Of a stretch of 64,000 nt of DNA, positions 35,488-63,310 are shown one piece after another. Source of the DNA: Schmidtea polychroa (taxonomy: Eukaryota); NCBI GenBank assembly GCA_044892525.1, contig CM097887.1, forward strand, positions 47,616,001 to 47,680,000. Reading direction: 5' to 3'. Position 1 is the stretch's first letter, and each line of letters opens with the position of its first letter. The notes beneath the pieces were generated by a model. It had not been told where the DNA came from. It did not search any database and saw only the letters and a list, made by a program, of their open reading frames with translations. The position numbers and the translations under genes were made by a program.

Positions 35488-36753
35488 ATGGAAAACGATG
35501 AGGAATGCCTGATATGCTTTTCACCAATAAATAATGAAAGAAATGTAATAATTGAAAATTGTCGACATTCATTTTGCATGGATTGCCTAGAGAAATGGCT
35601 TGTAATTAGTTCAACTTGTCCATGTGATCGGATCTCAATAAAATCACTGAAAATTATTGATGGAAATAATGTAAATATCGCAGAAGCTCAAGATTTAGTT
35701 AATTTTAATTGTTGTTCAAAATTTCTAATTAAAATTAATTTGCTTTTCAATATTCTATCGAAAATGTTGGAAGAGAATGTTCCAATTTCTTTCACTCCTG
35801 AAATGACAGATGAGGAACTGATTGCAATCTTTACAGAATTTTGTGAAATTTATCCAGTTTATTTCGAATCTTTGGAATTCTTTTATAATTTAGAAAATGT
35901 TTTGAATTTACAATCACCTGATATCCTTCATCAAATTGATCAAAAAAGAAATTGGGACTTGATAGTTTTCATGTATGAGAAGCTCTTTACCACTGTGGAA
36001 ATGTTAGTAGAATTTAAAATAGACCTTCATAAAAGTTCTTATCGTTATCTGATTTTAAATTCAAACCTAATGAAAAATATTCGAAAATTCTTAAGTAAAA
36101 TTGCAAAATTGCAAGAACAATTAGAGCTTTCAACAAATTTGCTTCGTTGGTTACTGAAAGGACTTTTCATTTATTTTAATAATTTGATGGGAAACAAGTT
36201 AAAAGATGTTTTTCCGATATTATTTACTGAATTAGGAAAATCAAATTTGATCTCAACAAAGATTCCCATTGAGAATATTCAAATGGAAGACACGATACAA
36301 AAACTTGAATCATTGATATTTGAAGATAAGGATGTAAATCCTGACCATTTTTTACTTGATGAGAGCTTGGAAATTATTATCACAACTTTAAAAGTTTTGT
36401 TGGATATTTTGAGAGAACTAAGTTTATCAAATCTTTCCGTTTTTGAAATAATACTTCTCAAAGTTGAACTTTATTATATCGATAATAGATTTTTCCTTCA
36501 TGACAATATAATCGAGGATCACATTTTTACAGCTGAGGTCTATCCCGAATGCTTGATTGAAAGCGTATACCATCTTATAAATAATATTTCTACTTTCATA
36601 ACTAAAAAGGATAAAATGGAACTCGACAAAGGTATTAAAAAGATGTGTAAAGAAATTATTCAACTTCAATGTGAATATATTGAAATCATTGAAAAGGTTC
36701 CGACTATTCAACGTCTGACAGAAGATTTTCTTTTGGTTTTGAAAGAGTTATGA
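35488..36753 (+). CDS. Intronless RING-finger protein, ~421 aa (paralogue 2)
   Basis: CLIC...CRHSFCMDC...W...CPCDR; collinear with 30487-31794. Confidence 0.8.
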   Translation: MENDEECLICFSPINNERNVIIENCRHSFCMDCLEKWLVISSTCPCDRISIKSLKIIDGNNVNIAEAQDLVNFNCCSKFLIKINLLFNILSKMLEENVPISFTPEMTDEELIAIFTEFCEIYPVYFESLEFFYNLENVLNLQSPDILHQIDQKRNWDLIVFMYEKLFTTVEMLVEFKIDLHKSSYRYLILNSNLMKNIRKFLSKIAKLQEQLELSTNLLRWLLKGLFIYFNNLMGNKLKDVFPILFTELGKSNLISTKIPIENIQMEDTIQKLESLIFEDKDVNPDHFLLDESLEIIITTLKVLLDILRELSLSNLSVFEIILLKVELYYIDNRFFLHDNIIEDHIFTAEVYPECLIESVYHLINNISTFITKKDKMELDKGIKKMCKEIIQLQCEYIEIIEKVPTIQRLTEDFLLVLKEL

Positions 36754-38606: not shown

Positions 38607-41600
38607 TGTTGCGGGTACACTACTCGGATGACCCCTTGTTAGTGCAACTTTAGTCTAGAGGATGAATGTCACCTCGATTTCGCCCATCATTTATTTGGTC
38701 ATCGCCGAGCGGGACCCGTACATAACTTACACTCCAACATAGCACCCGTGAATTGCTTCACGTTGGAACTGTGCTATGCCGGCGAGACGCCAGTAAGCAG
38801 GTGAGCCAGCTCCTTCGGACTACTCCTTACTGAGGCCTCGACTTCCCAACCCTGACTGCCGATAGAAGGACTTACGTCTACTCATTCCGTCGCCCCATCG
38901 CAATATTCCTAGCTGAGTTTACCAACTGATTAATGCTCCTCACGATTTCATGACTCTCAATACCATTTGCCAATTTCAACTCAACTGTCTTAAGATGAAC
39001 ACAAAGAAAAAAAAAGTATGCAGACAAATATGGTTTATTATTAAGATTATCAAACAAATATATCTAACACCTATACAATAAAGTTCACGACAACGGGAAA
39101 AGAGACAAGGTAAAATGTTATCAGACAATGTTCAGGTCAATTCAGAGAACGAAGGCTTTTTACGGGGAAGTTCTCATTTCTCCCACTCCGAGTCGGCCAA
39201 TAGATCTTCCAAATCGAAAAACTCAGAGGCGTTTTCCTCCCAGGTAACACCAGCGGCGGAGATGATTCGCCCTGAGATCACTGATGCTAAATCAATTGCT
39301 GCAGGAGGGTTGATGACTTTGATTGGATGATCCGACGATTGCTGGTTCTGTTTGGCGGTTATGCGTTCCCGCTGTTTCTTTTTGCGTTCGGCTCTCGATA
39401 ATTGCCGACGCTTTGGCTTCGATGCCGTTGGATTGATCGGGGGTGCTGCGGAGGTGGATGCTATCGCAGGTAGCACTTTACTGGTTCCGGTAAAGATGAT
39501 TTCTGGTCCTTTAGGTGAGAGCTCGGTCTCTACGCACCCATGGCAGGACTTTCCGACTGGAGAAGAAGATCCGCCAGAGATATCATGATGCGCTGGGAAA
39601 AGATTACTGGCTTCATTAATTGGGATCTTCGCGATCTTCCTTGTAGTTGCGGCCTGGACGTATAATTTGTACAGCGCCTCCGACTGCTCTTTTATCAGGC
39701 TCCTCTGCGCCCGACTCTCGGAAATCAACGCGTCTCTACAGTGCTCGCTTCGGTGCAGCTTCTTCTGAACCCCCTTCATCTGGGTGGGACTAAACCATGT
39801 CCCCTCCAACTCATCTATCCTTCTTTTGTGCTTTCCGATTTGGGCCTGGAGCTCTTTGATAATTGAATTCTTGTCGGAGCAAGAAAAACAAGGTCGAAGA
39901 ACGGTCTTGGAATTTGGCAACATTTTTGAGTGACTGTGAAAAAAAAATGAAAAGTGAAAATAATTAAATCAGCGGGAGTGTCACCATCTGACTACATCCA
40001 TACTGTACTGATCATAGACAAAAATATGGGTATACCAGTCCAGACAAGTTCTACTACGCGATGGATTCTCGTACCCTTTCGGGGCTTTAATTATAAGAAG
40101 ATAAATCGATCAAACCAGATTTCGCACAGGAAAAAGGAAGATATTACTATTTGTGAGAGAAATTCTAGGTCGATGAAAATGATTATTTATTTAATTCGCT
40201 TAGAGTCATTATTTCACGTTTACCGAGAATCGATTTAAATTGTCGACTTCTCCCCCCGTACGAGTGCTTTTAATGAGTGTATCATATACTGGGGGCGAGT
40301 GACTATCTATGGAAAAGGGGTCCATAATGCCTGTCGATTAGTTCCTACAGGATAAACGGAAGGTTATTTAAATTTTTAATTGTTTATTCATTCTCTTTAA
40401 TTACTCACATATGTGTTTTACCTGGTTTACATAATATTTATTTAACAATATTCGATATTAATATTAATGATAACTATGTCAAAAATTGAAATAATTTCGG
40501 TGCCATTCATGCTAAGATAATAAAGAGAGAATAATCATAATTATGATCGAGTTTATCATTAAAAATTAGTGTCTTTATAACAACTGAGCACGGTATCAGT
40601 GTGAGCTAGTAGTCGACCATACCTGCTGGGTAGATAAGGTAATGTCAGCCTAGTGATTGACTCTTAATCCGGAACGGTAAAATCTGATACCTGTCGGTAG
40701 TTTGATTAGTTAATAGAAATTCCATCTGGCATGTCCGGTCTGATTTTACATGATTAGAGACGGTGTGACTTTACCCACTACGCTTGGCTACTGTGTATGT
40801 CGGCAACTGGGTGACGCATGCAAGTTGCGTTTTCACACTCTTAATTATACCGATCGCTAGTAATGTAGGTTTTAAATGTTTGTATGCTGACATTTTCTCA
40901 GATTTTATCTACTGCGTAATCACTCACCATTCTCCTACGTATGGTGATGATTTACTAATTCTCACCGGATTATTGGAAAAATTAAAATTATCTATATTGC
41001 AAATGTTGGATACAGCCTGCTCCAAGGGTGGATTTTCCGTCTTTAATTCCTCAAACATAGTTTATCGAGCTACTCTCTAAGTGCTGGAGGATTTCTACCT
41101 GTCCCTGCTGGATTGCCAGCCCCCTGAAATACTGGAATTTTATATTTAATTAAAAAGATCCTCGGTTAACTTGAAGAAATATATTTTCTTGGCTCGAGTT
41201 AGTTGCATTTTTCATTTTTAAATTATTTGATGCCAATAGTTCGTGTAATTATGATAATTAATTATATGTAAATCCTTTCATATAAAATTCTAAAAAATTT
41301 ATGATAGCGAATCATTTTATGTAATTTAAACTTTTATTTGGAACAAACTCGTTTTATGCAATTCTGAATAACTATTTGGATTAAATCATTTTACCTGGTT
41401 CTACCATTTATTTACAAACAGTCATTTCGAGTAATCCTGATACTTGTCTGAAGCAATCTATTTTGAACTCCCTTGCAACTATATCTTTAAGAGAACTTTC
41501 AGACGAACGGAATAACCGTTCAGAAGGTCATAGGCTAAAAATTGGTCGGAACAGATTCTGAGTGAAAGGTATGGACATCAAAGACATGTCACAGATAGCC

Positions 41601-42748
41601 TCATCAAGGTTTGAACAATTTTTGACGCACAACCTACATTGATGATAGAGAAAAATTTTTCCTAGCAAACACGACATTCGAAAACGATAGTGTGGCACCC
41701 TCAATCACTGCGCGAATACATCCAAACCCTCCGATTCCTTTATTACATATCTTTGTTTTCAATCACTACATGACTATCAATTTTCTGCCACCATTTACCT
41801 ATAGATTTTAGTCGCACCTTCAGCAATTGGACCCGTGAAGAAGCCCTCACATTTCGGCCCAATCTAGCTGCGTGATTGAAATACCCTATGTCCACCGGTG
41901 GAGCTCCCGAAGGCACCTCACACCATGACATAGAGTATCTCAACGCCACGTTTCTCGCAAAATTGAATAGTCTCCAATAATAATTCATAAAAATTAATTC
42001 ATAAAAGATCAATAATTCTTAACGAGCAAATCATTTATTATCAAGCAAATTATTAATTTAAATAAAGCATTCTAAAATCAAACGAAAAGAAAAACCATTT
42101 TTTAAATTAAAAATATTATTAAACTATACGCATTACTTAAAAATTCAAAATAAGCAATCAAAAATCCTTACCGAATGATTGATACAAGTGTGGGCTGAGT
42201 CGAAAAGGGTACTATGTCGAATCAGTTAATGCTCGAATATCGTCTAGTTCTGTAAAAATCTCTTGAATCTTGGAATTGTCCTCGTGAGTTATCGTGCGTT
42301 AGTTGCTGGAGTTCTGTTCTGTCGTAGAATAGATTTACCTATTGAGGTGGTTTGATTAACAGTAATTGTTATGTTTTTAATGCCTGCTTATATATTAATT
42401 TTTTGTTTGCGCGGACCAATTAGAATTGAGTACCGCTTAATTTTATTAATTTAATTTATTTTCCTTGTTTTTAGTTATTTCTTCTTACTTTCTTTATTAA
42501 AATTATGTTTTTATTTATTTTCCTTAATTTTCTTATTATTTACTATATTTTACGTTGTTTTCCGCCATTCTATTGTCCTATTTTAATTTTTTCTCATCTT
42601 TATATTTTTTGTTTTAATTCCTATTTTCTAATTATTGTTTTTCTTATGTTTTATTCCATTTTGTTTGTCAATTTATTTGTTTTTATTTTTTTTTTATTTT
42701 AGTTAAGTTTGCCCTAATTTCTCAACTACCCTTCGATTCAGCCCAACA
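38607..42748 (-). mobile_element. 3' LTR, 4142 bp, TGTTG...CAACA termini
   Basis: Perfect 5-bp inverted termini; both ends homologous to the TSD-bounded solo LTR at 17851-29951; TATA at 42387-42394. Confidence 0.88.
39174..39923 (-). CDS. LTR-encoded 249-aa protein (EGTWFSP family)
   Basis: Intact; collinear with 28669-29418; acceptor TTTTCACAG|TCACTCAAAAATG; AATAAA near 39035. Confidence 0.85.
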   Translation of the reverse strand: MLPNSKTVLRPCFSCSDKNSIIKELQAQIGKHKRRIDELEGTWFSPTQMKGVQKKLHRSEHCRDALISESRAQRSLIKEQSEALYKLYVQAATTRKIAKIPINEASNLFPAHHDISGGSSSPVGKSCHGCVETELSPKGPEIIFTGTSKVLPAIASTSAAPPINPTASKPKRRQLSRAERKKKQRERITAKQNQQSSDHPIKVINPPAAIDLASVISGRIISAAGVTWEENASEFFDLEDLLADSEWEK

Positions 42749-42981
42749 AATCACTCGGGGACCCATCAAAATTGCGTCCCGCAATTGCATAGTTATCTTA
42801 CTTCATGCATTCATAAAAAGGATATATCGAAACAATTATACTACAATAACAAAAACAATTTTATTCTAAGATATAGGTCAAATCAAGACCAAGCAAGTAT
42901 CACTTAAGGTGATAGTTTGTATATACAATAAAAGTTTCTACATATGATAACCCCAATGTTTGAGTTAGAGTTTATGAACTG

Positions 42982-43641
42982 TTAACCATTTGATGCTTCT
43001 GCCGGCGGTTGTTGGTTGGTTTGGGTATTGATGTTGAGATAGGTCTGACTGTAAGAATTCGGCTGGATTGGTTGGTTACTCGGGATTCGAGGTCGGAATG
43101 GGGTTGGGTTAAGATTTGTCAGTGGCACTTCTTGAGGATTTCTGTTCGAGGTTACTCTTATTGATGTCGGGATTCTACATTTATTTCTAACTTCGTAAAT
43201 CTTCATGAGTATTGGTAGACATAGGAGGAGGGTTTCTGCGACCACCACATACATGAGATAATGGGTGTCATTGATTTCGGGAGGTGTTTTTGGCTTTTCT
43301 ACAAGATTTTCAAAATTCTCTTGTTGCATTTGTTGTTCTAACTGGTCGAATTGTTGGATTTGTTCGAGGATTTGTTTGTTTATCATTTTACAAATGGGAT
43401 TCTTTTTACACATTGTTTGGATGTTGTTGATGTGTGAACGGGTTGATTGAAGGGTTTGGATGATATGGATTTTTACTGTCATAGGGTATGTGCATTGGCC
43501 GGATTCTCGTTTAGGTTCTTGATTTTTATTTCGGTAATCTCGCACGATTTTCGGTTGGGCGTTTACTTGTTTGTTCTCCGTCAGAATCATCAATACCGTC
43601 ATTGTTATCATCATCTCGCCTCGCATGATACTATTATACAT
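42982..43641 (-). CDS. Accessory ORF5: predicted type I membrane protein (signal peptide, small Cys ectodomain, TM, Pro/Asn/Gln-rich tail)
   Basis: MMITMTVLMILT...VNA signal-like; YLMYVVVAETLLLCLPILMKIY TM-like. Confidence 0.7.
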   Translation of the reverse strand: MYNSIMRGEMMITMTVLMILTENKQVNAQPKIVRDYRNKNQEPKRESGQCTYPMTVKIHIIQTLQSTRSHINNIQTMCKKNPICKMINKQILEQIQQFDQLEQQMQQENFENLVEKPKTPPEINDTHYLMYVVVAETLLLCLPILMKIYEVRNKCRIPTSIRVTSNRNPQEVPLTNLNPTPFRPRIPSNQPIQPNSYSQTYLNINTQTNQQPPAEASNG

Positions 43642-43682: not shown

Positions 43683-44444
43683 TTAATGATTCTGGTTTGG
43701 GTTATTTTCGGCGATTCTCATCAGGGTGGATTCCGCTTTAATGACTCTGTGTCTTAACTCGGGCAGCATTTCCAACTGTCTGTTCTTTTCACGGGCCTCC
43801 CTTTTCATGTGCCTTATCTCCTTTTTCAGTCTCTTAATTTCTTCCCGTTTTTTGTCGAGATTCCTTTTTAGTTCGATTTGTAGGAAATCTTGTTCGTTTT
43901 CCTGCGAAAGGTTTCGTTGTTGTTGTTGTTGTTGTTTTCTCTCGATCTCTTGGTACTTGCGAATCCATTTCTTCATTTCCTCACTTTCTCGTTGTTTTTC
44001 CTCCAATTGTCGATTTAATTTATTTATAGTTATTTGGTGTTCTTTCGCTTCTGTTTTCCAATAATCTTGGATTACTTCTTCTGCCTTGAAGCTTGCCCTC
44101 TCTTGCCATAGTTCCTCTGCAATCTTTTCCCAGTTTCTTCCTCGTGTTCGTTGTTCTTGCAACCATTCATTCTTCTCTTCAGCTTCTCTCTTTATTTCTC
44201 CTAACGCTTCGCACTCCTTCTTTAGTATTTTAATCATTTTTCGGTCTTCTATATATTTGTTTATTAGTCTCTCGTTTTCGTCCCTCTCTTCCCGTAACTT
44301 GGCCTTTAACGTTTGTGTTTCTGTTGTTTCTGCCTCAATCTCTCCCTCTTCCACGTCGCTCGTAATTTCTATTATTTCCTCGATTTTCATATCTGTAATA
44401 TGTACAGTTAATGGTGCGCTATAGTGCGACTTATACTTATGCAT
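43683..44444 (-). CDS. Accessory ORF4: coiled-coil protein of unknown function
   Basis: 253-aa open frame, E/K/R-rich heptads, same codon bias as the polyprotein; likely start MKIEE after TTACAG. Confidence 0.7.
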   Translation of the reverse strand: MHKYKSHYSAPLTVHITDMKIEEIIEITSDVEEGEIEAETTETQTLKAKLREERDENERLINKYIEDRKMIKILKKECEALGEIKREAEEKNEWLQEQRTRGRNWEKIAEELWQERASFKAEEVIQDYWKTEAKEHQITINKLNRQLEEKQRESEEMKKWIRKYQEIERKQQQQQQRNLSQENEQDFLQIELKRNLDKKREEIKRLKKEIRHMKREAREKNRQLEMLPELRHRVIKAESTLMRIAENNPNQNH

Positions 44445-44557: not shown

Positions 44558-45613
44558 TTATACGAAGGTTTCCTCCTGTCCCACATAACCTTCGTCACTA
44601 TCGACCGCTGGATGCAGCTGTATCGCAATAGGGTCATAGGGTAGGTAATATTGGGGGATTTGAGCTCTCAATTCACTAACTTCGTCTCTTAGAGCTCGAG
44701 TGATATTCAGCTCTTCGTCGAGCAGATAAGTGAGATACCTTGTCTCTTCGTCTTTCGCCTCTACTTGTCTATCTAAGGCCTTGATTTTCTCGTCGCCCTT
44801 CCATTTTTCAATTTCTATTTCCAAGTTTTTGATATTTTCGGTATACATTTTCCTCTCGTTTTCTAATTTTCTGTTTTTTCCCGCTAGGACCATGTTTCTT
44901 TGTTCTAACGATCCTTGTAATCCATTAAGGTCTCTTTTCATCTCTTCGACCTGATTTACTAATTCCACAATCCGTCCTGCTTGTTGGGTTATCATCTCTT
45001 CCATTGCGGCATTCTCGTGCTCTCTTATGTCGCATTTTATTGCCAAATGTCGCTCAAATTCCATAGCCTTTGTTTGCCAGGTTTGACTTCGGGCGGCGAC
45101 CTTTCTCAACCGTTTCAATTCTTCCTTTATTATTAAATTCTCCTCCCATTTGCCCTGTTCGCTCTCATATCCGAGTCTCATGGGCAATTCTTTCATCTCT
45201 TTTTTCATTTCATTGCTTTGTCTTTTCCATTTTCTCGCTTCTGCCACTAAGTGCATCATTTTCCTGTCTTCTATTTGTTTTTCCGCTTCGCGCTTGGTGT
45301 TCTCATCGGTAAGTCTCTTTCTCGCTTCCTGCACTAGCTGCTTTAAGTAGTGGCTGTGTGCTTCTTGGCGGGTATTTTCTAGTGACGCCCATTTTGATGC
45401 TCTTTTGCATGCTTCTGCTTCCGCTCTTAAGTTGTGTATTAACCATTGGTATTGACTATTCTCATCTTCTCTAGCTTCTTCGATGTGATTTCTGGTGAGA
45501 TTAGTTAGTTGGAACATTACTCTGTTCCATTTTTTGTTATGTTCTCGGGGAATTTGTGTCTTGTTGACATTGGTTGGGGCTATCGCAGTTTCGGTTAGTT
45601 TCTCTTGTGTCAT
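44558..45613 (-). CDS. Accessory ORF3: 351-aa coiled-coil protein with acidic/aromatic tail
   Basis: Long open frame with heptad pattern; tail YYLPYDP...DSDEGYVG. Confidence 0.72.
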   Translation of the reverse strand: MTQEKLTETAIAPTNVNKTQIPREHNKKWNRVMFQLTNLTRNHIEEAREDENSQYQWLIHNLRAEAEACKRASKWASLENTRQEAHSHYLKQLVQEARKRLTDENTKREAEKQIEDRKMMHLVAEARKWKRQSNEMKKEMKELPMRLGYESEQGKWEENLIIKEELKRLRKVAARSQTWQTKAMEFERHLAIKCDIREHENAAMEEMITQQAGRIVELVNQVEEMKRDLNGLQGSLEQRNMVLAGKNRKLENERKMYTENIKNLEIEIEKWKGDEKIKALDRQVEAKDEETRYLTYLLDEELNITRALRDEVSELRAQIPQYYLPYDPIAIQLHPAVDSDEGYVGQEETFV

Positions 45614-45806: not shown

Positions 45807-47195
45807 TTACTCCGTTCTACCCTTCTCCTCTTTCCTCACGGTCATCTTGATATACACCGTGTCATTTCTTGCCATATCTTCTACTTTTTGTTGTAGGATG
45901 AATGTAGGTGCTCCTGTTGCTGATCCTTCTTCTGCCGTAGGTCTCTGGTAACACATTTGGTTTCCAGTTGTCTTGAAGCTTTGTTCGTGGATGCTTCGGT
46001 CATTCATTAGTGCAATATCGATTTTTGCCTGGAACGGCCACTCTATTATTTCGTCGTATTCCCCTTTACATAACAGAAAGAAAATCGAAAAGTGCGTATC
46101 TAATCCGGTTCCGTCCCCGTTGGGATATATCTTCATTTTCATTTTGTACCCATTTTTCCAAGAATGGAATGCAGGACTTGTTATTCTTGTCTCTTCTCCG
46201 GTTTTTGCTTTTCGTATTCTTTCTTTTACTCCCGTTATTTTCCATATGTAGGGTGCTGTTGGGGTTATCTCATTTAGATTTATTTCCCGTATTTTCTGAT
46301 GTAGCTCCTTGGCCTGATTATTACTGATTTCTATTCGGTTTATTTGCATCTTTATGTTTGCTCGGGCTTCTTCGAACGCTTCCCTTTCTTCTAGTAGTTC
46401 TTTGACTAACACTTTCAACGATGTTATCTCTATCTCCATTTGTTTTACTTTCTCTTCGCTTTCTTGTAACGCAGTCGACCACATTTCTGCGTGGGTTGAA
46501 GCATTTTCTACTAAATGATGTGGTAACTCACCTCGGTGTAGTAGTTTCTGACAACCCCATCTACCTAGTACACATGTCATTCTTTTCTTTTCGCATTCCC
46601 TTAGATGCTGTGCCACCTTCATTATTTCCCCTTGGTTACATCCGTTTGGGCATTCCCCACTGAACTCTGCACATACTCTCTCCTCTTGGACATTGTGATG
46701 TTTGAGGGTGAGATTTTTCCACGTATCTATTTCTCCACAGTGTTCACATCTTTCCAATCTCTCTTCACACTGCCTTTGATGCTCTTTTTCTTCGCTTGCT
46801 CGAATGGTTTTATGGCACCTTTCACACTGGCCAATTCTGTACATACATTCTCCCATATGTTGTACTACCTTCCATATTACTCCTTTCCATTCGCATGGGG
46901 CATTTTTGCATCCCAGGTTGGTGTTTAACATGTCTTTCACTGCGGCTTTATCCTCGTTAGTGTCTTCTAAACTCGATATTAGTGTCTCTTTACACACCGG
47001 GCACCTCTGTGGTCTATTCTTTATTGCTTCACTGATACATTCTTTACATACTCTGCATCCACATTGCGTTTGGTGAGGTTCCTTTAACAACTTTTCACAT
47101 ATTCCGCACATAACATGTTTGTGTATTCTGATCGTTGTAGATTTTCGGACTTGCTCGACAATCTCTCTGAACTCTTCTCTTTGTCGTTTATCCAT
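45807..47195 (-). CDS. Accessory ORF2: intronless full-length TRAF homologue (RING, TRAF zinc fingers, coiled coil, MATH)
   Basis: CGIC..LL.EP.QT.CGCRVC..C...CPVC; several CxxC..H..C fingers; MATH motifs YIWKI, SPAFHS..GYKM..KIYPNGDG.G..TH.SIFF...KGEYD....WPF. Confidence 0.93.
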   Translation of the reverse strand: MDKRQREEFREIVEQVRKSTTIRIHKHVMCGICEKLLKEPHQTQCGCRVCKECISEAIKNRPQRCPVCKETLISSLEDTNEDKAAVKDMLNTNLGCKNAPCEWKGVIWKVVQHMGECMYRIGQCERCHKTIRASEEKEHQRQCEERLERCEHCGEIDTWKNLTLKHHNVQEERVCAEFSGECPNGCNQGEIMKVAQHLRECEKKRMTCVLGRWGCQKLLHRGELPHHLVENASTHAEMWSTALQESEEKVKQMEIEITSLKVLVKELLEEREAFEEARANIKMQINRIEISNNQAKELHQKIREINLNEITPTAPYIWKITGVKERIRKAKTGEETRITSPAFHSWKNGYKMKMKIYPNGDGTGLDTHFSIFFLLCKGEYDEIIEWPFQAKIDIALMNDRSIHEQSFKTTGNQMCYQRPTAEEGSATGAPTFILQQKVEDMARNDTVYIKMTVRKEEKGRTE

Positions 47196-47280: not shown

Positions 47281-47640
47281 TTAGGGTTCGGAAGAGTCGG
47301 CTTCGTGTCCGCTCTCCTCTCTATTCATTAGCCATTCCGACCAGTCTTCTATTTCTGTCTGTTCTGCTTCCTCCATCATTCTGTCTAGCTCGATTTCCTG
47401 TCTACGGCTATATTGGGTTATCCTCTCTATCTCTCTTTGCATTTGTTCGATTTTCAACCTCTGGTCTTCAATTATTTTCAAATAACTAAATCCTCTATTC
47501 ATACTCTCGATTAGGTTTCTGTGCATCGTCAATCCTTGTTCTTGCAAATTGGACACTAATTGTGCTAATACGGCACATTGTTGCTTCCATAATTCTTCAG
47601 TTACTGTATTGTGGTTCATTTCGTTATTTCCTTGATCCAT
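47281..47640 (-). CDS. Accessory ORF1: ~119-aa coiled-coil protein with acidic Trp-containing tail
   Basis: Likely start MDQGNN (47640); tail EIEDWSEWL. Confidence 0.6.
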   Translation of the reverse strand: MDQGNNEMNHNTVTEELWKQQCAVLAQLVSNLQEQGLTMHRNLIESMNRGFSYLKIIEDQRLKIEQMQREIERITQYSRRQEIELDRMMEEAEQTEIEDWSEWLMNREESGHEADSSEP

Positions 47641-47800: not shown

Positions 47801-50800
47801 CTATATACGTGAGTTTGGAGGGCGCTGAGCGTTCCAGGCCTCCACCCACTGTTCTTGTTTGATATCACTTGGTCGTTTCACTCGATGTTGGAAATTTCTG
47901 ATTCGGGTCATCTCTAGTTCTCCGCGATGTCGTTTATCTTTAATTATTTTTATTGTTCCCCCTGTTATGATTAGGAAGGCCCCTGTTATTATTATCCCAC
48001 TGATCCACATCATCTGCTTCACGCTTATATTCTCTGGTTTCTCCTTGTTCGTTAATGTTGATATCGCTTCTGTACCTTGCTCGTTTCCTCTTTTGCCATT
48101 TCCTTTCATCATTTCCCGTATTCTTGCTATTTCCTCGTTCATACCCTCCTTTGCCATCTTTTGTATTTTTTCCATCTCTTCCTCCGAAACATAGTTGTCC
48201 TGAGCTTCCTCACCGGTTTTCTTGTGCTTTCCTCCTTCGTTCTTTTCGTCGTGGTTTTTTCTTTTCTTTCCTCTTTTCCCCGGGTATCGTCGGCATTCTC
48301 TTTTTGATTCGTTCCTCCAGATACAAACCGTGTATTCTTTCGGCGGCTGCTGCTGCGTCACATATTGATGGCATCTCTCACCTGGTCCTAATCTTGAAAT
48401 ACAGACTTTGTGCTCTTTTCTAGGTTGGAGCTGCGTTCTTACTACTTCACCACCTTTTCCTAGGTGTACCTCTTTTCCTTTGACGTTCGTTATTCTCTTC
48501 CCGTCTCGATTTCGGTATGCTTCTTGTATTCTTACTTCTGTTATTGGTTCTGTGTCCTCATTTATCAGTACTAGTTTCTGGTACGCTCTAGACATGCATC
48601 TTCCTAGTATGCACCTTTCCTTTAAGTCCCATTCTTCCTTTAAATCCCACTGCTGCTCTTGTGCTTGCTTTTTCTTTACTTGCTTTAGTTCATCCTCTTT
48701 GCTATCTTGATTCTCCGCTTCTTTGGTTTCTTTTATCGTTCTCGTCCCTCCCTGAGCTGTTACTAACTCTATCATGGTAAGCATAATTATCATTAATATC
48801 ATGTTTGTCTCTATTTCTTTGTTAGTGAAAGGTAGGCATACCCTCTGTTTTCCATTATTCGATTTTTCCTCCTCTTTGGTCTTGGTTCCCGGCCTGTTTC
48901 CCTCTCTTTTCGTATCCAAATCCTTGCTTTCCGGTTTATCCTCTTCCGGTTCTCTTTTCCCTTTATCCTCTTTCCGGCCTTTTCCATCATTGTCATCGTG
49001 TTTATCTCCCCCGCTGTCATTTAAAATGTCGTCCTCGACATTTATATCGTTCAATAATCTGCGATATGCTGTTAGCACTCTGTTTCTTGCTAATTTTGCT
49101 TCGAATTCAAACTCTTTTCTACCCGTTGCAGCATGTCTCTTTCTATTCCATTCTTTAACAAACTCTCTCAATTGCATACGACGATGTTTCCCAATTCGTT
49201 GTTGCTCGTTCTGATTTTGCGTGAATTTTAGGTCTTCTCTATTTAATACTATTAAAATAATTTTAGGCGTCCCCCCCTTAGTTAGGGTATTCTTTACCAT
49301 CGCATTTTCTCCGTTTTCGTAGAATTCGTTTACATTTATCGCATATTTATTATTTTGTGGTACTCTCCAGGTTAATAATAATTTCATTGCTTCTAGATTT
49401 TTCCGTACCGTATTCCATTGAAACTGAGATGTGTTTTTGCACATATTTTCAACTTCTTCTTTTGTCGCATTTTTGCAAATAAATCTGATCATTTCTAAGT
49501 TTGGCTGTATGGTTGCCCAGTCCAAGGTGGAATTTCCTTCATTGGACCTTTCGTCTAGTTTCGATCCTGATTGATGTAGGATGTGGAGTGTTTTTGGGTG
49601 TATTTTCGTTATAGCTGCATACATCATGGCGGTTTCACCTTGTTCATTTTTCGTGTTGGTTTCCTCGCCCATCTCCCCAAGGATTCTCATGATCGTTATT
49701 GCTCTATTCTCTTTTGCAGCTAGTATTGCTTGTTGTAGAGGTGTTCGGGAATCCTTTGTTACCATTGTAAATGCTCGAGGCAAGAAGGTTTTGATTTTCC
49801 CGATATCTAAACCCGTGGTTTGATCTCTTGCGTATGTGTGTACGGCTTTTATTATTTTGGACAATATTATTTCGTCTGGCAGCTCTAGCATTTCCTCAAA
49901 GAACACTTCTTTTGCTTTGCGTATTATTGCCTCTTGATCTATACTCATTGATTTTGTTTCAATGACGTGGTTTGTGACCGTTTGGTTCGTTGTTGACTTT
50001 GATTCCCTCGGTTTCTCATACCTTATTTTCGTTTTCTTTCCGTTTGGATTATTGATTCGTTCCTCTGCTGTAAGTATTTGGATAATATCCAGGTAATTCT
50101 CGCGGATGTTATTCATTGTGTCCATCATATATAACACGCTTACCGTTTCCCAATATTTATTTCGTACTTGGTTAGTAAATTGGAATATTGATTTTTCGAA
50201 TGTGTCAATTCGCTCTTTTAATAACTGCTCATCTTTATGATTTGTGAATTTTATCCCTCGTTCTACTAATTGGTTTGGGATTTCGAATAAATGATGTCCT
50301 TTCATGGCTTCTCTCATAAGCGTGTTCTCTCCTCTCGTGAATGCTTCGTTTACGTTGATCATATAATTATTTTTAATTGGGTTTCTCCAAGTGATTAATA
50401 CTCCTGTAATTGTTGTCAGTTTTTCTTTGATCGCTGTTAATAATCCATCATACATGTTTCCGACTTCTCGATTGTCCTCATATGATAGTAGTTCCATCAA
50501 TGACGTGAACGCCTCGGTACTTTTCCCTTCGATAGCATGATGTAGTGCGTTTTTCCGCTCGTGGTCTTGTGTAGTTATTTTCGATCCAGTATCGAGTAAT
50601 GCGGTTATAACGTCTTTTGTTTTGCCTCTGTTTGCGGCTATCATTAATGGTGTGTAACCTTGGTTGTTTGTTTGTTCTGTTGATCGCTTGCAGTCGTGAA
50701 ATGCGTCTATTGTTTCTAGTATTTGCTCGTTGTTACCTACTTTCATGAGTTTGTGTAATGGTGTGTCTCCGTAACGATCTGTTATTGTAAATAATATTGG

Positions 50801-53800
50801 CCATTGGCTTTTGACTACTCGCAATAATGGGTGTGTCCTTTCTCTATTTGCATAGTTCTCGATCATCGTCAATAATCCTCCTAATATTTCGAAATCTAAT
50901 CGATCTTTTGCCCATCCAGGTATTTTAATTTTTACCTCTTTTACAATCTTTTCCGCTTCTGATGGTTGGATACCTAATCGTCCAGTGATCGGTTCTGCGA
51001 GTTGTTGCATCATGTTCATTCTATAGGTTTGCGAACGTGTGGTTAATGTACGGCCTTCTGGTTGACTAGTGGCTGTTTTTGGAATTGATTTGCATCGTGC
51101 CACGTTTACGTATATTGGCCTGGTAAAGGGGTTATTTACCAATTTCACTCTTACATTAGTTTCGCCTACGAATAAGATCTCATATGGTCCTTTTCCGTTG
51201 CGTTGTAACTTTTTTGTGGTTCCTGGAATTAATTCCGGGGTTTCTATCATTACCCAATCACCTGTTTGAAACGTATGTTGCTTCACGTTTTTCTTTCGAT
51301 CGTGTAAATCTTTATAACTTTCCTGGTAGAACTTGATATTTAATCCCGCAGTTTCCCAAATTTCTTGCATTCTTTCCTTGAATTTCGTAACATAATCATC
51401 GATCTCCATATACTGCGATATCGGTGGTTGGTATTCCAGGTCCATTGGCATATTACATTCTCTTCCGTACATTAATTTGAATGGGCTCATTTTCGTTGAT
51501 GCGTGAATCGACATTCTGTACGCCATAAGACATAGGTTTATATATTCGTCCCAATCTCGTTGGTGACGGTCAACGTAGTTTGATAACATTTGTATAAGTG
51601 TTCCATTAAATCTTTCCGTCATCCCATTGGTTTGAGGGTGGTATGGAGATGTTCTTAGTTTTGCTATTTTGAAGTAATTTGTTACTTCGCTCATTATCTC
51701 ACTCATAAAATTAGTTCCCTGATCGGTTAAGATTTGTTTTGGTGTTCCATATCGGCAACATATCTCTTCTACCAAAATTTTTGCGATTGTTTTAGCTTTT
51801 TGGTCTGGCATCGCGAATGCTTCTGGGAATTTCGTAAGAAAGTCTGTGATCACTAGAATGTAAACGTTTCCTCTATCTGACTCTGGTAGTGGACCAACTA
51901 CGTCCATGGATATCATTGTCATTGGTTCTATTGGTACTGGCATTGGCGTTAAAGGTGCTTTCCATTTCGATCCAGTATTCTTCCTGGTTGCACAAGTTAG
52001 ACAATTTTTTACCCATTCGGTTACATCTTCAGTTAACGTAGGCCAAAAATATTTCTGTTTCATTCTTGCTAACGTCTTTTTCGATGACATATGTCCTCCC
52101 AATCTCCCATCGTGATATTGCGTTAGTAACTCTTTTCGTCGGTTTTCAGGTATACACATTAATCGTTTTTCCCCATCCATTATCAGCAACCAATCTTTCT
52201 CTATAATATATCGGTGTCGGTGTTTATCCATATGTTCTTTTAATTTTTGGTCTTTCGCATATACATCTGTCTTTCCGGTTTTTACATAATCGATAATTTG
52301 TTTTAATTCCGCGTCCTCTTGTTGGTCCTTTCGCAATTGACAGAAATCCAAATCTTCCGCTACTATTAAGCATATGCGTTGCATTTCTGAATCCACCAAA
52401 TCTGGGAAAATAAATCTTGACATACAATCGGCGTTGGCATTTGCTCTTCCCGCTTTAAATTTTATAAATGGGGAGTATTCTTGCAATTGCATGGCCCATC
52501 TCATCAGTCTACTGGACGCTTCTTTATGTTGCCCTAACCACACTAATGGTTGATGATCTGTGGTTATACATATCTCATGTCCCCATAGTAAGTATCGGAA
52601 GTGTTTGATAGCTTGTATTATAGCCAATGCTTCCCGTTCTGTTACCGAATAGTTCTTTTCGTGCTTTTTGAATGTTCGACTGTAATACCCGATTACTCTC
52701 TCTTTTCCTTCATCATCTAATTGTCCCAGAATCGCGCCTGCCGCGTACCCGCTTGCATCCGTTGCCAATAGAAATGGCTTCTTAAAATCTGGGTGTACGA
52801 GGATAGGTGCTTCGATTAGTTTATCTCTCAGCGTTTCGAACGCCTGTTGTTGTTCCTTCCCCCAAATGAACGAAATGTCCTTCTTTACTAATTCCTGGAT
52901 TGGTTTTGCAATTCCTGCATAATTTTTGATAAATTTGCGATAGTATCCGCATAATCCTAGAAATTCCTGAACTTGGGTGACAGTTTTCGGTGCTGGACAT
53001 GTTTTTATTTTCTCAATGTTTCTTGGGTCTGGCTCCTTTCCTTTAGCTGACACTATGTGTCCTAAAAACGTGACTTTTTCCTTTGCCCAATCGCATTTCG
53101 AAGGTTTGAGCTTGAGTTTCCATTGTCTTAATCTAATAAATACATTTCGGATATCCTCCAGATGTTGTTCGAATGTCGCTGAATAGATTAGCAAATCATC
53201 AATATATACCATACATTGTTTGATTCCATGCGTGACGAAGTTCATACACCTTTGAAATGATGCTGGTGCGTTGGTCAGTCCGAATGGCATTTTTCTGAAC
53301 TGATATAGATCTCGTTCCAGCGTGAAAGCTGTTTTCTCTTTGTCCTCATCTTTGACTTTAATCTGCCAGTATCCACTTTTTAGATCTAAAGAAGTAAAAT
53401 ATGCTGCCCCTTGCAACATCAATAACATTTCATTGATGTCCGGCAATGGATAGGTATCTCTCTTGGTTACTGCGTTTAACTTCCGATAATCGATACAGAA
53501 TCGTTGGGTGCCATCTTTCTTTTTTACCATGACCACTGGGAATTGCCAGGGTGAGCAACTCGGTTCGATTACTTTTGCGTCTAGCATCTTTTGTACTTCT
53601 GCTTCGGCTATTTCTTTTTGCATTTCTGCTAGCTTGTATGGTCTTAATGCAATTGGAGTTTCATCTATGAGGGGTATTGCATGTAGGGTAACATCGCATG
53701 TACCCAAGTCTAAATCTGAGATGGCGAATATATCTTTATATTCTACCAACAATCGGTGCAATTTTTTCTTTTCATCATTCGTCAACAACATACTATCTAT

Positions 53801-56800
53801 TGTCCATAATTCATCATCTTTGATCATCTCGTTGGTCACTTTCGGTAATTCTATGTCCATCATTGGGGTCAATCTTCCCAATTTTTCGTTCTCATAAATG
53901 ATTTTGTCTTCCTCTTCGAAATTCGTGATGTTGAGTGGTATCACTCCTTCTTGGTTTATTGTGATTATTTCTCTTGCGAGTGGTAATTCTCGTCGCTTTT
54001 CAAATGACTTGCTTGGTTCAAAGATAACTTCTCCTTCCATACCCGTATCCACTTTTATCTGACAAATCATCTGCGATTTTGCTGGTACTATTATTTTTTC
54101 TGGACATCTGATGACTACATTCATTTTGCATATTCTACCGGTTTTGTCTTTTAAACACATGGTTGTTAAGTCAATTACGACTTCTTTTAACAATTCTGGC
54201 ATCAAATCCGTTCCGATTATGCATGGTACGCTAAGTTTTGGTATTACTGCCAAATACGTTTCAATTTCGTTGTCCTGGTATCTCAATGTAGTCCACCATC
54301 TTCCGACCACGTCCACTGTTTCTTTACTACATGCTATGATGTGAATTGTTGTTGATTCGATATCCTTCCAGTGTTTACTGGGGATTTGATTAATCGCTAT
54401 CGCTGATACATTAGCTCCGGTGTCTATCATAGCATTGGTTTCTTTACCATTGATTTGAATCATAACTGTTACTGCTGGACCTCCAGGTAAACTCATCGCT
54501 GCTATTGTTCTTACGTCATCTGCTTGATCTACACTTTTGGTACGTCGTGTTGGCATATAATGCATACCGGGTTGACTTGGTAATTGCGGATACATATTTT
54601 GTGTCATGGTCAAAGCTGCTTGTGGTCCCGCGATATCCGGTGGTATGTAGCTTCCATTGGCGATCCAGGTATTTGTCTTTTCCTTCTCCCAATATGGTGC
54701 CGTTTCCATTGGTTTTTCGTTTGGGTTTCTGTTTGGATATAGACATTTATCGTTCCCGTTATCATCGTCGTCACTATCGCTGTTAGATGATTGGCTTCTA
54801 AATCGGTCCAAGAATTTTGGCTTATTCTTTTTCAATTGTCGTCTTGTTGCTTCATCGTACATTACTTTCCGGAATCGTCTGCCTACTTCCTCGTCGGTTC
54901 CTTTAATCTTTGTTAATATTTTAATCAATCGCTTTATCCGATGAATGTCTTTTGAGTGACCATGTAATACCATGGTTTTAGCTAAAAATGGTAGAAAGCC
55001 TACTATCATTTTCCAATTTACTTTCTTTTCTCGCTTGTATATATCAAAACACGCTAACATTTGTGTTAGTATTACTCTGACTATCTGAATTATGAGTATG
55101 ATCCCTAATATCCCGGCCATCATTTGTCCAAAAACCAAGAATCTTCCCCACATTGCTTTCATCATGTTTGATGTGGCTTGTTGAAAATGGTCTGGCGATA
55201 GTAGCAGCTCGTAATTCGGGCCTGATTGATAATTTGTTCCCCCCGTTATTGTAACCATATTTGACAAAATGGATTCTCGTCTGGCTGGAAAGAGTACGTT
55301 AAGTCGTGCTGTTTCTAGATCTTCTGGGGAATACATACCGCCGTTTGACACGTCTATAGGTTTGAAATCCAGCTCTGTGGCGAGTTCTATTAATCCAAAT
55401 TTCTTGGGCTCCTCGGATATGGTTTTTCCCGGTAACATCATCCATTTCCCATCGGGCCTTTCATATAAAGGTCCGTATGCATTAGAACAGTTAAAGAGAT
55501 TTGGGTAGAAACCCACTGGATTCATAATTCTAGTGACTGGTTGGACGAATCGATTTTGTCCTTTATAACGGATTTCTAATTCATTTGCACATCTCTTTTC
55601 GGGTAGTATGGATTTTTCTGGCATTCGTGCATACGTCTTGGTACACTGGTATGTGTACATCACTTCTCCTACCATTCTACCAAAATGTCCGTCTGGTAAT
55701 GGGAGTGATGGCATCGCGTTATCTGGGTGTGTTATCGCAATAGCTAGCTTTGTTTTCAATATTTCTTTATTCAATGAACAATCGTTTTGTATCAGATCGT
55801 AATATACTTTTTGCAAGGTCGTTTGTCCGCGATGAAATAGAAAATCCATTTTATTATTTGCATATAAGTATAGTTTTACGTCCTCCGTTGCTATCTTTCC
55901 CACTGCTCTATCGATTATTTGTCTCGACATATAGATGCCTGCGTAATTGGTTTTATATACTATACTGTCACATTTGGTGGTTTCTTTTTCTTTGATAAAT
56001 CTCATACCTAGATCGGGATCGTCTGTGATTAATGCTGTTGGTGTCTTCTGCGTTGAAAGTCTCTTTTCTCTGGGAGATGGTGGCATTGGTTTTCCATTTC
56101 GCATTCTCACTCTGTCGTTTCCATCCTCGTCGTTCTCGTTCTCATATATTTCTCCTTTTACTTCATTGAACAAAGCACTTTTTAACAGTTGGAGTCGGCA
56201 TTTTTGGGTATTAGCTTCATAGATTATAGTTGATACTCCTGTCCTACATACGTTTTCTGTAGCTCTACACGCTGGGTTGGTCTTCATTTGGTAATTATTT
56301 GCGTCAAATTGCGCTTCGTATTCCTTTAGTTCAACCGTATAGGACTCAATCACTACTACCCCCGATATTACTTCGCCTCGGATCGTATACGTACCTCCGT
56401 TACATGACCCATCTGATGATTTTACTTTTCCGGATACGTAAACGCTTTCGGTTTTAATCATTCCAGTTTGTCCGTGAATCGTCACTCCGTTATGCATTTT
56501 TAGCGCTCCGGTTCTAAATAGCTCTTTACAGTCCTCTCGTTGTATTGATACGATTTCTTTATCCAGACCAGGTAGTATAAGAGTCGAATACGAATATTGT
56601 CCACAGTAATATGCGAGTACCTTTTTTGATACCACGCATTCCCTTGCTTGCGTTCTGATGAAATCTGATTCTTGATATACATGGTAAGTAACTTTTGTTC
56701 TTACTATGTCTAATTTGTTGGGTGATGCTTGTCTGCATTCTTCTATGTCTCTCAACGAGTATTTATCTCTCATTATCATATTATCACAATCGTAGATGGT

Positions 56801-59800
56801 AAAACCTGTTGCTCCACTTGTGCACAACATCCATATCATCATAGTCATCATTAACGAATTTATCGATGCTTTTCGGCTTGCTGGGTCTTTCATGGGTAGT
56901 TCCCATTCTAGTTCATTCAACAACTTCTTCAATCTAACTTGCATCGACCTTTCTTGCTCATTTTTTCGTGGCGCTTGTATAAGTCTTTTCCATCCTCCGG
57001 CACGAATAATATGTGGTTCAATAGTATTCTCTATGATTGAAACGGTCATTTCCACATGATTTGCAAATTGTTTATTTGGTATTTTCCTCGCAGCTAGTCC
57101 CATCAAATTATACATCAAATACGTGATTACCACTAGATGATGTTCGTCATCATTTGCATTTGTCGTGAGCAGTTCAATCACTCTCTTCGTTTCATCCCAA
57201 TCCGTTTTGGTGGTTTTCGTTTTCTCTTTGATTAACTTTGGGATTATCCCCGAAACGATGTGCCATAATTGTCTAGCTTCCGTACTGGCTACTTTCCGTT
57301 GCCACAAACGTCTAAGTTGTGGGTTTGTTATTATTAACATATCTTTGATCAATTCTCGTATCCATTTTTCTCCTCTTTCGATCGTTGGTTGGGCTTCCTT
57401 TAGATCCCATACTATTTTATCCAATTTTTCTAATCGAACTTGCCCTTGTTCTTGCTTTAATTGTTCTTTGGTTTTAAACTCAGACTTTTCTCCTTGTTTC
57501 TTAGGTCTTCCTTTTGCCCGTTTTTCCATCATCGTTCCGGCTTCTCTGGTATTTTCGTAATTCGGATTTCTTTCGTTATCCGTTCTGGGTAATGAGCTAT
57601 CGTTATTTCTTAGCCACTCATTCCATTCATCTATTATTTTATCGGTTTGACCTTCTGGTGTTACTTTCGTTGGTTCTCTTTGCTTCTGGAATTGTTCATC
57701 CGTTTCGGTTTCCGTAGTATTGTCGATGATTTCTTTGATGTTTAGTTTCGTTGGTTGTTGATAACTCGTTGATGGCTGGTTATTAGTCCACATTTCGGCT
57801 CCTGTCGGCCATCTTACTAATAGCGGTGATCTTTCTCCTGGTTCATCGTCACTATCTTCCAGGATTATCTCTTCAACTTCTTCAGTTTCATTAGATTTAC
57901 TTGGTGCTTTGTTCGGACTTGGAGTACTCAAACTGCCTTTTGTTAGTTTAGTAATTTTACTTTTCCTTTTTAACGGCTTTCCCAACGTTTCTGCCATTGT
58001 TAACACATTTGTCTCTTCCAATCTCATGGGTGTTATTCCGACGTCTGCATTATCGTCTAGTGATTTTCCGAATAGTTGCAGATGGAATGGAGTTTCATAT
58101 GCTAATTTCTTTTTTAATTCTCTAATCTTTGTTGTTGGATGCACCTCTAGTTCCTCGATGCTCTTGTCCGGATACTTGATTCGGATGTGATACCTCTCCT
58201 GAGTGTCTTGTGCCCATTCCTGATTTCTCCATTTTCGAATAATTTGTTCTAGCTGTTCTGGATACCATTCATTATATTGCCGGTATTCCTCTATTGCCTT
58301 TGCCATTCCTCTCAGATTGTGGATGTTCTCTGATGTCTTTAAGATGATGTTAGCCAACGCTACTACTTGGCGTTTTTGATTTTTCGCTCCCATTGCTAAG
58401 ATATCGCCTAATTGTTTATATCTTTCTGTCTCTTCTCGTTCTCTTGCTTCCGTCGCTTCCTCGCCGTCCATATCAGCATATTCACGTTCCTTTTTCCTCA
58501 TTGCATGAATATGTCTCGCTTCATTTTCGCTTTCTGATGTGACATCCGTCTCGCTTTCGTCATCTGATGTCTGTCCCCTTGCTTCCTCTTCATATTCTGG
58601 GGGTTCCTCTTCTTCTTCCTCCGATTCACTTTCTGTCTCACCAATGTCTGTTTCTACGAAGATTCCTTTCCGGATTTCCCATTCCTTATTTTCTGCATTC
58701 CACACTCTTTCCCATGGGGTTCGTCTGCAGGATCTGGTGCTTAATTTCGTGATTTTTCCTTGTAGTTCTTTTTCTTTTAACCATTGTTGGTGGATTTCAA
58801 TTATTTCTGTAGATTTTTGATATAACGTTTTCATCCGGTCTCGTATTTCTTTTTGATAGATTACATCTCTTGTTCGAAATACATCCATTGGTACTATCCT
58901 GATGATCTGATGATTGTCCCACATACCCAATTCGCTTAACGAGGTGTCGTCTTCTGCTCGTAATATTATTTTATCGTACATCAGGACTACATCATCCACC
59001 ATACCATCACTACTTTCGCTACGTACCTTTTCCGTTATCTCTTGGTTTATCTTTGATACCAAGTCATCCACTGTACTCCGATTGCTCATTTTTATTCGTC
59101 GTTTTTCTTCGTTCGGTAACCATATGGTTATTTCCAACCTCTGTGGCTGGGTTTCTTTTAACCTTCCATATTTGTGGATCAAATTTATGGTTCTCCAATC
59201 ACTCATCCGGAGCATTTCTGTATCTCGCAATCGGCTCATTAGTTCGTACATGGCTGGGGCTCGTCTAGTGATGAGTAATTCCCAGTTGTCTTCTACTTGT
59301 TCTTGAATTTGTTTGATCAGTTTATCCAGGTTTCGTCTCAGAGTACATTGTTTTATTTGTTCTAATTTCAATTTGATATTAAAATCATATTCTGCCTTGG
59401 CATCTTTGGCCCAATCGTAAAGGTTGGCTGGTTGTTTTTCTTTATGCAACTTCAGTATTTGCGTTTCTCCTGGCCATATTAGTGCATCTACTAAGTGCAT
59501 ATCTGGTTTGATCTGTTCTCCTTGGTATTGATACAGATATTCTTTCTTTCTCGAACTTCCCAAATGTTCTCGTATCCAATCGAAAAGTTCGTCAGTGACT
59601 GTATTTTTTATCCACATTCTTTCAAGTCCTCTACTCGTTCCGATTTTTATTACATACCGCGTGGTATCTGCCTGCTTCATTTTTTCCATATACTTTTTTA
59701 TAATTGATTTTTCCTCGTTTGGTATTAAATCTTTCTCGTTTCTTTCCAGTTTCATCACTTTTTGCACGAATCGCCTGAATGATATTACGTCGATGAACTC

Positions 59801-61654: not shown

Positions 61655-63020
61655 GATTGGTGTTCTAGATTCGTCTGTTTCTTTTAAATTGTCTAACGAT
61701 GTGACTAAACTTTGGGCTGATAATTCCTCGGTTGGCGTTGCTAAACTATTAGTGATGTCGGACAGACTTTCTCTGCTTCGAGATCGACTAGGGGTGTCTC
61801 CGAGATTTTCTTGGTCAAATATAGGTACTTGATTGGTTCTTCTTGATCCTTGCGATATTCCTCTTTGCTGTTTAATAGATCGTCCTCTTTTGAGTTGTTG
61901 TAATTCGTCTCCTGAAAATAATACGTCTCCTGGCTTACTTGAAGATCTAAGATTGGGTTTATCCGTGATTCCTTTCTTACGCTTCTTGGTAATTAGCGGC
62001 TATTGAATTGGACGAGTTCGGTTCTGATTGTGTTTCCTTCGATAAATATTCTGTATGAATCTGCTACTGTGATTCTGAGGAGATTTACTAGTCCTTGACA
62101 GATGGCTGCTAATATTATGAGGTTGAATATATCGATGATTCGTTCGAAGTTGGAGATGTCGCTATCTGTATCTTCTTCCGTTCTGGAGTCTTCCGGTTGC
62201 TGTGCCTCTCGGTGCGGGTTCTGAATGAATTTATTCTTGGTCGATTGTCGATTTCTTCGAATTCCTTTTGTGCAGGTTCTGGATTGTCTTGGTTGACTGG
62301 ATTGGTTTGATATCTAAAATGAAAAAATGATCTCGTGTTGCATTTGCTTACACGACTTCATCATTCTTTCAACAACGTTCGAACACAGACACCTTTTAGG
62401 TTCTGTTTATGCTTCCCCTATTTTTTATGCAATTACTTCCGCGGGTTATAATCTCCCATCAGCCCGAATTTTTCGTCGATTTTAAATTATCTATATGGGG
62501 TAGTAACAATTATCTATCAAGTCGTAACAATTATCTATTCGTTATCAATTATAGTAAAAATAGGTCGTTGTCGGTCTCTGCTTATTACCCCCCTTCGTTT
62601 TCTTATTCCTTTTGCGCTGTTGTCGCTATTTTACTTTTCATATTTACTATTATTACGCTCGGTTCTACTCTGGAACCAATAAAATGCATTTTCCCGGTTT
62701 AACCAAAAAAAATATTCCGTAGAGTTTCTCTACTTCACTGGGATCCCTTTAATTAGTTGGTTACTTTCCTCTTTACTCATTATCATCGTTTCGCCTATTC
62801 TTTATTTTCCATTATCTCTTTAATTCGTTTCCTTCTTCCCTTTTCCTTTTTCATTATAATCTTATTATCTTTTCCACGAGCTCGTTTATTTCCTCTCTAA
62901 ACTCAAATTTTTGTAATTACATTCAATTTGTTTCTAGCTAGCTTTAATATTCCCTTTCTCTATTAATTCAGATATTAGCTCATTGTAGCTTAACTGCTAT
63001 CTCTCGCTTTTCTAGGCCTT

Positions 63021-63310
63021 TACGACTGGCTGGCACTATTCAACAGCTCAATCTTCTTCCTTCTGATCGGTTGGACTATTCGACAACTCGATCTTACGAC
63101 TGGCTGGCACTATTCAACAGCTCAATCTTCCTCCTTCTGATCGGTTGGACTATTCGACAACTCGATCTTACGACTGGCTGGCACTATTCAACAGCTCAAT
63201 CTTCCTCCTTCTGATCGGTTGGACTATTCGACAACTCGATCTTACGACTGGCTGGCACTATTCAACAGCTCAGTTTTCGTTTTCCTTGACCGGCTGGACT
63301 ATTTTACAGC
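63021..63310. repeat. 74-bp tandem repeat (3.4 near-identical copies plus a degenerate tail) in the leader
   Basis: TACGACTGGC at 63021, 63095, 63169, 63243; each unit has two related ~37-bp halves. Confidence 0.92.

Follow-up and report, generated by a model that had tools for sequence, protein, structure and literature searches.

A full-length, intronless TRAF ORF carried as cargo by a Burro-like retroelement in Schmidtea polychroa

Introduction

The 64-kb stretch of Schmidtea polychroa DNA analyzed here (hereafter the window) contains an intronless open reading frame (ORF) that encodes a full-length TRAF protein of 462 aa (45807–47195, minus strand). Many diverged copies of this ORF are tied to neighboring element ORFs, and it is therefore the cargo of a retroelement and not a host locus. 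The element has a layout like that of the planarian Burro family. With a probability of roughly 0.6, we consider that the TRAF was captured long ago from the mRNA of a triclad host and has been kept as a TRAF2-like survival adaptor of this Burro-like element. The two parts of this reading differ in strength: the ORF is element-borne, and the function predicted for it is probable.

The TRAF ORF and Its Predicted Fold

The ORF runs as a single unbroken frame from its ATG (47195) to its stop (45807), and its assignment draws on the ORF call, Pfam, PDB matches, an AlphaFold2 model and the spacing of zinc ligands. Pfam places a RING domain at approximately residues 29–68 and a MATH domain at 316–453 (E 1e-25), and both PF21355 and PF22486 score above cut-off in the C-terminus. 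The Pfam zf-TRAF family has no match in the ORF; zinc ligands mark out four complete fingers (96–117, 124–143, 150–175, and 182–201) and, on the same ligand reading, a fifth, partial finger (208–235). The AlphaFold2 model, built from a 15-row alignment, has a mean pLDDT of 84 and a pTM of 0.37, the latter being expected because the chain is extended. It is made up of the finger array, a long helix (232–307) corresponding to the coiled coil, and a beta sandwich (316–455) corresponding to the MATH/TRAF-C domain. Its best structural matches in the PDB (Foldseek) are TRAF1/2/3 domains (E ∼1e-16). At the sequence level, the C-terminal part matches TRAF3, TRAF1, and TRAF2 (E ∼1e-27), and the RING and fingers match TRAF6, TRAF5, and TRAF2 (E 1e-14 to 1e-15 for this region against TRAF5/6). 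An N-terminal RING followed by fingers, and a coiled coil preceding a C-terminal MATH/TRAF-C domain, are features of the TRAF family, and the complete RING-zinc finger-coiled coil-MATH protein described in the initial annotation is borne out on all of these grounds.

The lack of introns, claimed at the same time, also holds. Full-length host TRAFs align collinearly with the ORF, so that no intron is needed, and none of the 15 joints listed (of 112) in the sequencing-run contigs has minus-strand GT..AG ends. In the MATH groove, at positions which we take to follow TRAF2 numbering, the ORF resembles the pattern of the triclad host proteins.

The Element Around the TRAF ORF

The polyprotein of the element is a single minus-strand ORF of 4,617 aa (47801–61654, open from 61999; ORF call and Pfam). 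It contains a gag region with three CCHC knuckles, a fusion glycoprotein, protease, reverse transcriptase (RT), RNase H, integrase and two ankyrin blocks. The glycoprotein is of the Monjiviricetes type (Pfam, E 7e-70) and is encoded in frame before the protease, and the remaining layout follows the Ty3/gypsy order PR-RT-RH-IN. Past pol, the last ∼1,100 aa of the polyprotein are taken up by ankyrin and further domains. A ubiquitin-like stretch is weak (E 0.005, below cut-off), and a BCL2-like candidate in the polyprotein gave no match and a model pLDDT of 42. Upstream of the polyprotein lie a 74-bp tandem repeat (63020–63313; repeat search and self-BLAST) and, leaving the window at its edge, the tail of a further minus-strand ORF (63882–63998), whose last 38 aa carry an IAP-type RING (zf-C3HC4_3, E 2e-9); no BIR domain is present in these visible 38 aa.

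Five minus-strand ORFs follow the polyprotein, and the TRAF is the second of them. An ORF of 119 aa (47281–47640, found by ORF reading) lies between the polyprotein stop and the TRAF. Beyond the TRAF are a charged ORF of 351 aa (44558–45613) that is probably coiled coil and has no Pfam family above cut-off, a charged ORF of 253 aa (43683–44444), and an ORF of 219 aa with two hydrophobic stretches (42982–43641), the last two likewise with no Pfam family. A TG...CA unit of ∼1.06 kb (41691–42749, minus strand) is likely to be the 3′ LTR of the element: it resembles a diverged inverted copy at 17851–18984, and the depth of the sequencing runs drops below ∼41800, near its end. A shorter LTR (42189–42749) was rejected because both the similarity to the 18-kb copy and the read depth continue to ∼41700–41800. 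Self-BLAST of the 64-kb window revealed no LTR pair, and no polypurine tract or target-site duplication was seen near the TG...CA unit. The end motifs of the unit are absent from 61000–64000, so the window would not include the 5′ LTR. The element thus occupies >22 kb of the window, is open at 64000 and has a single LTR-like unit. The TRAF had been placed between pol and the 3′ LTR; its position within the element stands, but the ankyrin-containing end of the polyprotein and the 119-aa ORF intervene on the pol side, three more ORFs follow on the other, and the 3′ LTR is itself putative.

Approximately 560 bp into the LTR-like unit is an inverted close copy of the LTR 5′ end (42189–42211 vs. 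42727–42749). A block at 41800–41970 (minus strand) and 18716–18885 (plus strand) is 81% conserved between the two LTR-like copies and is predicted to fold as two long hairpins, in which 7 of 50 predicted pairs are changed on both sides in this comparison of two sequences. No Rfam family matched the block, and the Rfam and tRNA searches gave no match. Judged by its modeled fold, the block is a candidate cis-acting RNA of the element.

Codon Use, Copies and Selection

At four-fold sites the TRAF ORF has A3/T3 frequencies of 0.54/0.11, compared with 0.53/0.12 in the polyprotein, in agreement with the element codon bias reported in the initial annotation. Six unrelated ORFs of the window range over 0.22–0.39/0.18–0.46, although these are probably mobile-element ORFs as well and the comparison is therefore one without a true host gene.

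Summed contig depth, which by the tool's own warning is distinct from copy number, lies in run X1 between 117,000 and 249,000 for the TRAF, between 156,000 and 225,000 for the integrase-RT region, and between 7,000 and 22,000 for the flank (40500–41801). Pol is ∼2–4 times deeper than the TRAF in run X5 and ∼3–39 times in run X4, so that related elements may lack the TRAF or carry one of <82% identity. A high copy number of the element is supported by 14,318 contigs matched in run X1 (all identity bands) and by 2,770 places that vary across the four runs. Among the 32 pieces listed (there are 20,703 more), a 95%-identical X4 contig spans the TRAF and the downstream ORF, and a near-identical contig links the 119-aa ORF to the start of the TRAF. 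In three of the four runs there is a deletion joint (45421/46126) that runs from inside the TRAF to the downstream ORF. The pol-like depth in X1, the diverged contigs that tie the TRAF to its neighbors, and its kinship with triclad TRAFs (see below) together uphold the proposal of element cargo of host origin.

The variable sites offer a small hint that the ORF may be under purifying selection. Thirty-seven of the 40 sites listed fall in element ORFs; those in the TRAF are all synonymous (4/4 vs. 0.32 expected per site, p ∼0.01, a test on four sites from the tool's best-supported among the 2,770), and the polyprotein has 15 synonymous sites out of 21.

Kinship and Origin of the TRAF ORF

Relatives were sought among 1.84 billion representative proteins, and the best full-length ones include Dendrocoelum TRAF-2, -4, and -5 and Dugesia TRAF2-like A. 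Word-index searches, whose scope excludes fused or longer TRAF forms, returned one and four matches, all unnamed proteins. Trees were built with FastTree from 112 of the 151 matches plus the query, and with IQ-TREE (LG+G4) from 35 rows picked from the FastTree result. In the LG+G4 tree, the ORF forms a clade (99/97) with four unnamed proteins rich in K/E/R/Q/T, a clade that could be partly due to shared composition, as the composition test rejects four of its rows and LG+G4 is prone to composition artefact. The K/E/R/Q/T fraction is 0.41–0.49 in these four proteins, 0.40 in the TRAF, 0.37 in the polyprotein and 0.27–0.36 in 14 other relatives. The five-member clade sits within a 21-row group containing all four named triclad TRAFs and separated from the 15 others (95/98). 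A phylogeny against host TRAFs had been suggested as a check, and in it the ORF groups with those of triclads; deep nodes are at 56/34, with no specific host sister gene singled out. Cysteine occupies the RING His site in 18 of the 21 rows.

Three of the four unnamed clade proteins look broken, as does a fifth relative (P0001, P0017, P0023, and P0273 being the broken ones), and on sequence grounds the four appear to be element-borne copies from another genome. Of the 20 nearest relatives, 16 are divergent, host-like and outside the clade, which means that host TRAFs are diverse independently of the element; the four that are element-like serve as a proxy and suggest that the element-borne share of TRAF diversity is a minority. 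Element copies may nevertheless swell raw host TRAF counts. These results restrict the likely donor of the TRAF carried by Burro to the Cys-RING TRAFs of triclads, and A-rich codons together with clade membership provide a simple marker to tell element-borne from host TRAFs. The RING His site is likewise a Cys in three echinoderm TRAF3-like proteins (P0042, P0060, and P0094). Their position outside the group that holds the triclad TRAFs suggests that the His-to-Cys change arose more than once.

The RING Domain

The RING contains the motif CGCRVC, confirming Cys47 at the usual His position and giving a C4C4 arrangement in place of the canonical C3HC4, with all eight zinc ligands present. Does this make it a decoy, as had been proposed? 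Cys is found at this site in 21 of the 81 matches with a matched motif (151 examined) and is therefore a family variant; these include the three named Dendrocoelum TRAFs (-2, -4, and -5) and the three echinoderm proteins. C4C4 RING ligases are exemplified by TMEM129, which is active, and CNOT4 (PMC4024746, in the text available). A decoy role read from the His-to-Cys change alone was dismissed, because Dendrocoelum TRAFs share the Cys and C4C4 RINGs can be active. As far as its residues indicate, the element RING is no more disabled than those of the host family and has no special decoy character.

Compared with the TRAF6 contacts given in the available text of PMC5702613, Ile32 (equivalent to Ile72) is kept and Glu34 replaces Leu74, a site at which none of the host triclad TRAFs has Leu. 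Lys87 occupies the Arg-link site, as Lys does in the three Dendrocoelum TRAFs. Pro66 is retained, as is a basic residue following the final Cys, and the RING aligns to that of TRAF6 without insertion. With Glu in place of Leu74 and Lys in place of the Arg-link, a Ubc13-type, TRAF6-style K63 activity seems doubtful.

Proposed Function and Alternative Explanations

What could a retroelement gain from a TRAF? Capture would have proceeded through an RNA intermediate, by recombination with a host TRAF mRNA. The protein would trimerise via its coiled coil and MATH domain and could dock on TRAF-site peptides of host receptors or adaptors. Ubiquitin ligation might come mainly from a partner RING, either that of the IAP-type protein encoded upstream in the element or that of a host TRAF, and signaling would be tilted toward survival of the element-expressing cell. 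The pairing of TRAF2 with cIAP is established, and the IAP-type RING upstream makes survival-signaling adaptor the likely role of the TRAF. In planarians, knock-down of host TRAFs leads to more cell death (PMC7586133), host TRAFs (PMC7586133) and BURRO1 (PMC8532177) are both reported to be intestine-enriched, and the TAK1/MKK/p38 module is a documented immune route (PMC7958881), in the portions of these papers available.

A dominant-negative decoy would bind receptors or host TRAFs via its MATH domain, coiled coil and RING dimer surface, build no chains and so damp immunity. The Glu in place of TRAF6 Leu74 and the Lys in place of the Arg-link fit such a role, TRAF RINGs are described as heterodimerising (PMC5702613, available text) and viruses carry TRAFs; however, both the His-to-Cys change and the Lys are common to host triclad TRAFs, which also lack the Leu, and the RING is retained with all its zinc ligands although a decoy could dispense with them. 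We regard this as unlikely. Even less favored is a stand-alone E3 ligase, in which the C4C4 RING ubiquitinates host restriction or death-signaling proteins recruited by the MATH domain. The eight ligands, Ile32, Pro66, and the basic residue after the last Cys would suit it, as would the activity possible in C4C4 RINGs and the insertion-free alignment to TRAF6, but the TRAF6-specific E2 and ubiquitin contacts differ, and E2 partners are undefined for most TRAFs (PMC5702613, same text).

The ORF could instead be a chance capture that spread as the element multiplied and now has no function. Deleted copies, seen as joints, and the broken relatives listed above are in keeping with this, yet the frame and all ligands have stayed intact although the codons are completely of the element type and only ∼30% identity to host TRAFs is left, and the listed TRAF variants are synonymous; a neutral passenger is thus very improbable. 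An ordinary TRAF gene of the host, present once and lying next to or inside an element insertion, would be compatible with a window that has no LTR pair, but it is at odds with the element codon use, the element-level depth and the diverged contigs bridging the TRAF to its neighbors, and is already largely refuted. The survival adaptor captured from a triclad host therefore remains our preferred reading.

Other Features of the Window

A minus-strand ORF of 160 aa (8145–8627) ends in an IAP-type RING 40% like that at the window end and has element-like codons, and a stretch at 6173–6265 matches the element leader at 62468–62562; both are probably remains of a related element. Intronless RING ORFs of 421–435 aa and 45% alike lie at 30487–31794 and 35488–36753 (both plus strand), with a remnant at 17450–17650 (minus strand). 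The two ORFs are AT-rich without the element skew and have no Pfam family beyond RING. Around them, facing outward, are two members (28630–29418, plus strand; 39174–39923, minus strand; 67% alike) of a coiled-coil ORF family also found at 9716–10087 (minus strand) and 5333–5812 (plus strand). A second repeated pair is located at 4450–4932 and 10469–10849. A non-LTR reverse transcriptase ORF of 1,034 aa with a zf-RVT domain (Pfam) occupies 21655–24759 (minus strand) and may belong to the R2 clade.

Planarian TRAF Expansion and Comparison With Known Systems

MATH expansion has been reported in planarians (PMC6109357). Published tallies stand at 121 MATH domains or 282 contigs, and how many TRAFs there really are is described as unsettled (PMC6109357; PMC7586133). 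The available parts of these two papers draw no link from Burro to TRAF counts. PMC11410931, in its available text, mentions Burro a single time, with TRAF absent. Among the literature matches listed, a set that mostly leaves subscription papers uncovered, none ties planarian TRAF expansion to retroelements or a full-length TRAF to Burro. As a tentative extension, Burro TRAF and IAP might form a selected survival module acting on host death and immune signaling, and a large share of the >100 planarian MATH/TRAF transcripts might be cargo. If so, the celebrated planarian TRAF expansion would in good part be retroelement amplification.

Named Burro elements are absent from the best 120 of 222 RT relatives, the closest listed being unnamed env-bearing polyproteins with 47–52% identity in pol. 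These metagenomic polyproteins (P0212–P0234; 2,600–4,100 aa) have the same in-frame fusion glycoprotein, and in-frame env may thus reach beyond Burro; in P0213 the ankyrin block precedes the protease and does not follow integrase. No TRAF was found among 18 metagenomic polyproteins that carry env or at the 81 loci from the RT scans, and in viral contigs 20 pattern matches yielded none that was confirmed. Two of the lines listed there (L020 and L021) match the polyprotein through its gag.

Virus-borne TRAFs, such as megalocytivirus ORF111L and giant-virus TRAF-like proteins, which came up as matches by fold, are likewise host-derived TRAFs in a mobile genome, and the ISKNV TRAF protein is titled as apoptosis-inducing (PMC3352826, available text). 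Unlike the present ORF, they reside in DNA viruses, and their named matches have 11–25% identity and no sign of a common origin. The triclad host TRAFs (Dendrocoelum lacteum TRAF-2/-4/-5 and Dugesia japonica TRAF2-like A) share its domain order and length of ∼450–470 aa and have a similar MATH groove, and those of Dendrocoelum also have the Cys at the RING His site and the Lys at the Arg-link, the Dugesia record being without RING. The ORF differs from them in its 24–33% identity, its A-rich codons and its K/E/R/Q/T content (40% vs. 30–35%).

The closest parallel is Burro/GYPSM1, which has a polyprotein of 4,873 aa with in-frame env, ankyrin, BIR, BCL2-like and MATH_TRAF_C domains (PMC6431247, available text); TRAF/MATH cargo in Burro-type elements is therefore already published. 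Common to both are one polyprotein of ∼4,600–5,100 aa, a CCHC-knuckle gag followed in frame by a mononegavirus-like env and then pol, repeats of both the ankyrin and the tandem kind, accessory ORFs and TRAF/MATH cargo. To judge from the RING tail at the window edge, an IAP-type module may be shared as well. Burro approaches 30 kb in total with paired LTRs; the part of the present element that falls in the window is >22 kb and has one LTR-like unit. The MATH domain lies inside ORF1 in Schmidtea mediterranea and on a separate upstream ORF in the D. tigrina element (PMC6431247), whereas here a complete TRAF lies downstream of the polyprotein. The Burro literature names MATH_TRAF_C alone as far as the available text of PMC6431247 goes, in contrast to the complete RING-zinc finger-coiled coil-MATH protein of the window, although Burro-2 to -4 may already show the complete downstream layout (Grohme et al., 2018). 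The window contributes the complete TRAF domain set and its downstream placement, and it also points to the donor family and provides a marker for sorting. Burro has been proposed to meddle with apoptosis and ubiquitination (PMC6431247, same text), and since a stand-alone TRAF ORF lends itself to assays and knock-down independent of the polyprotein, this idea becomes directly testable.
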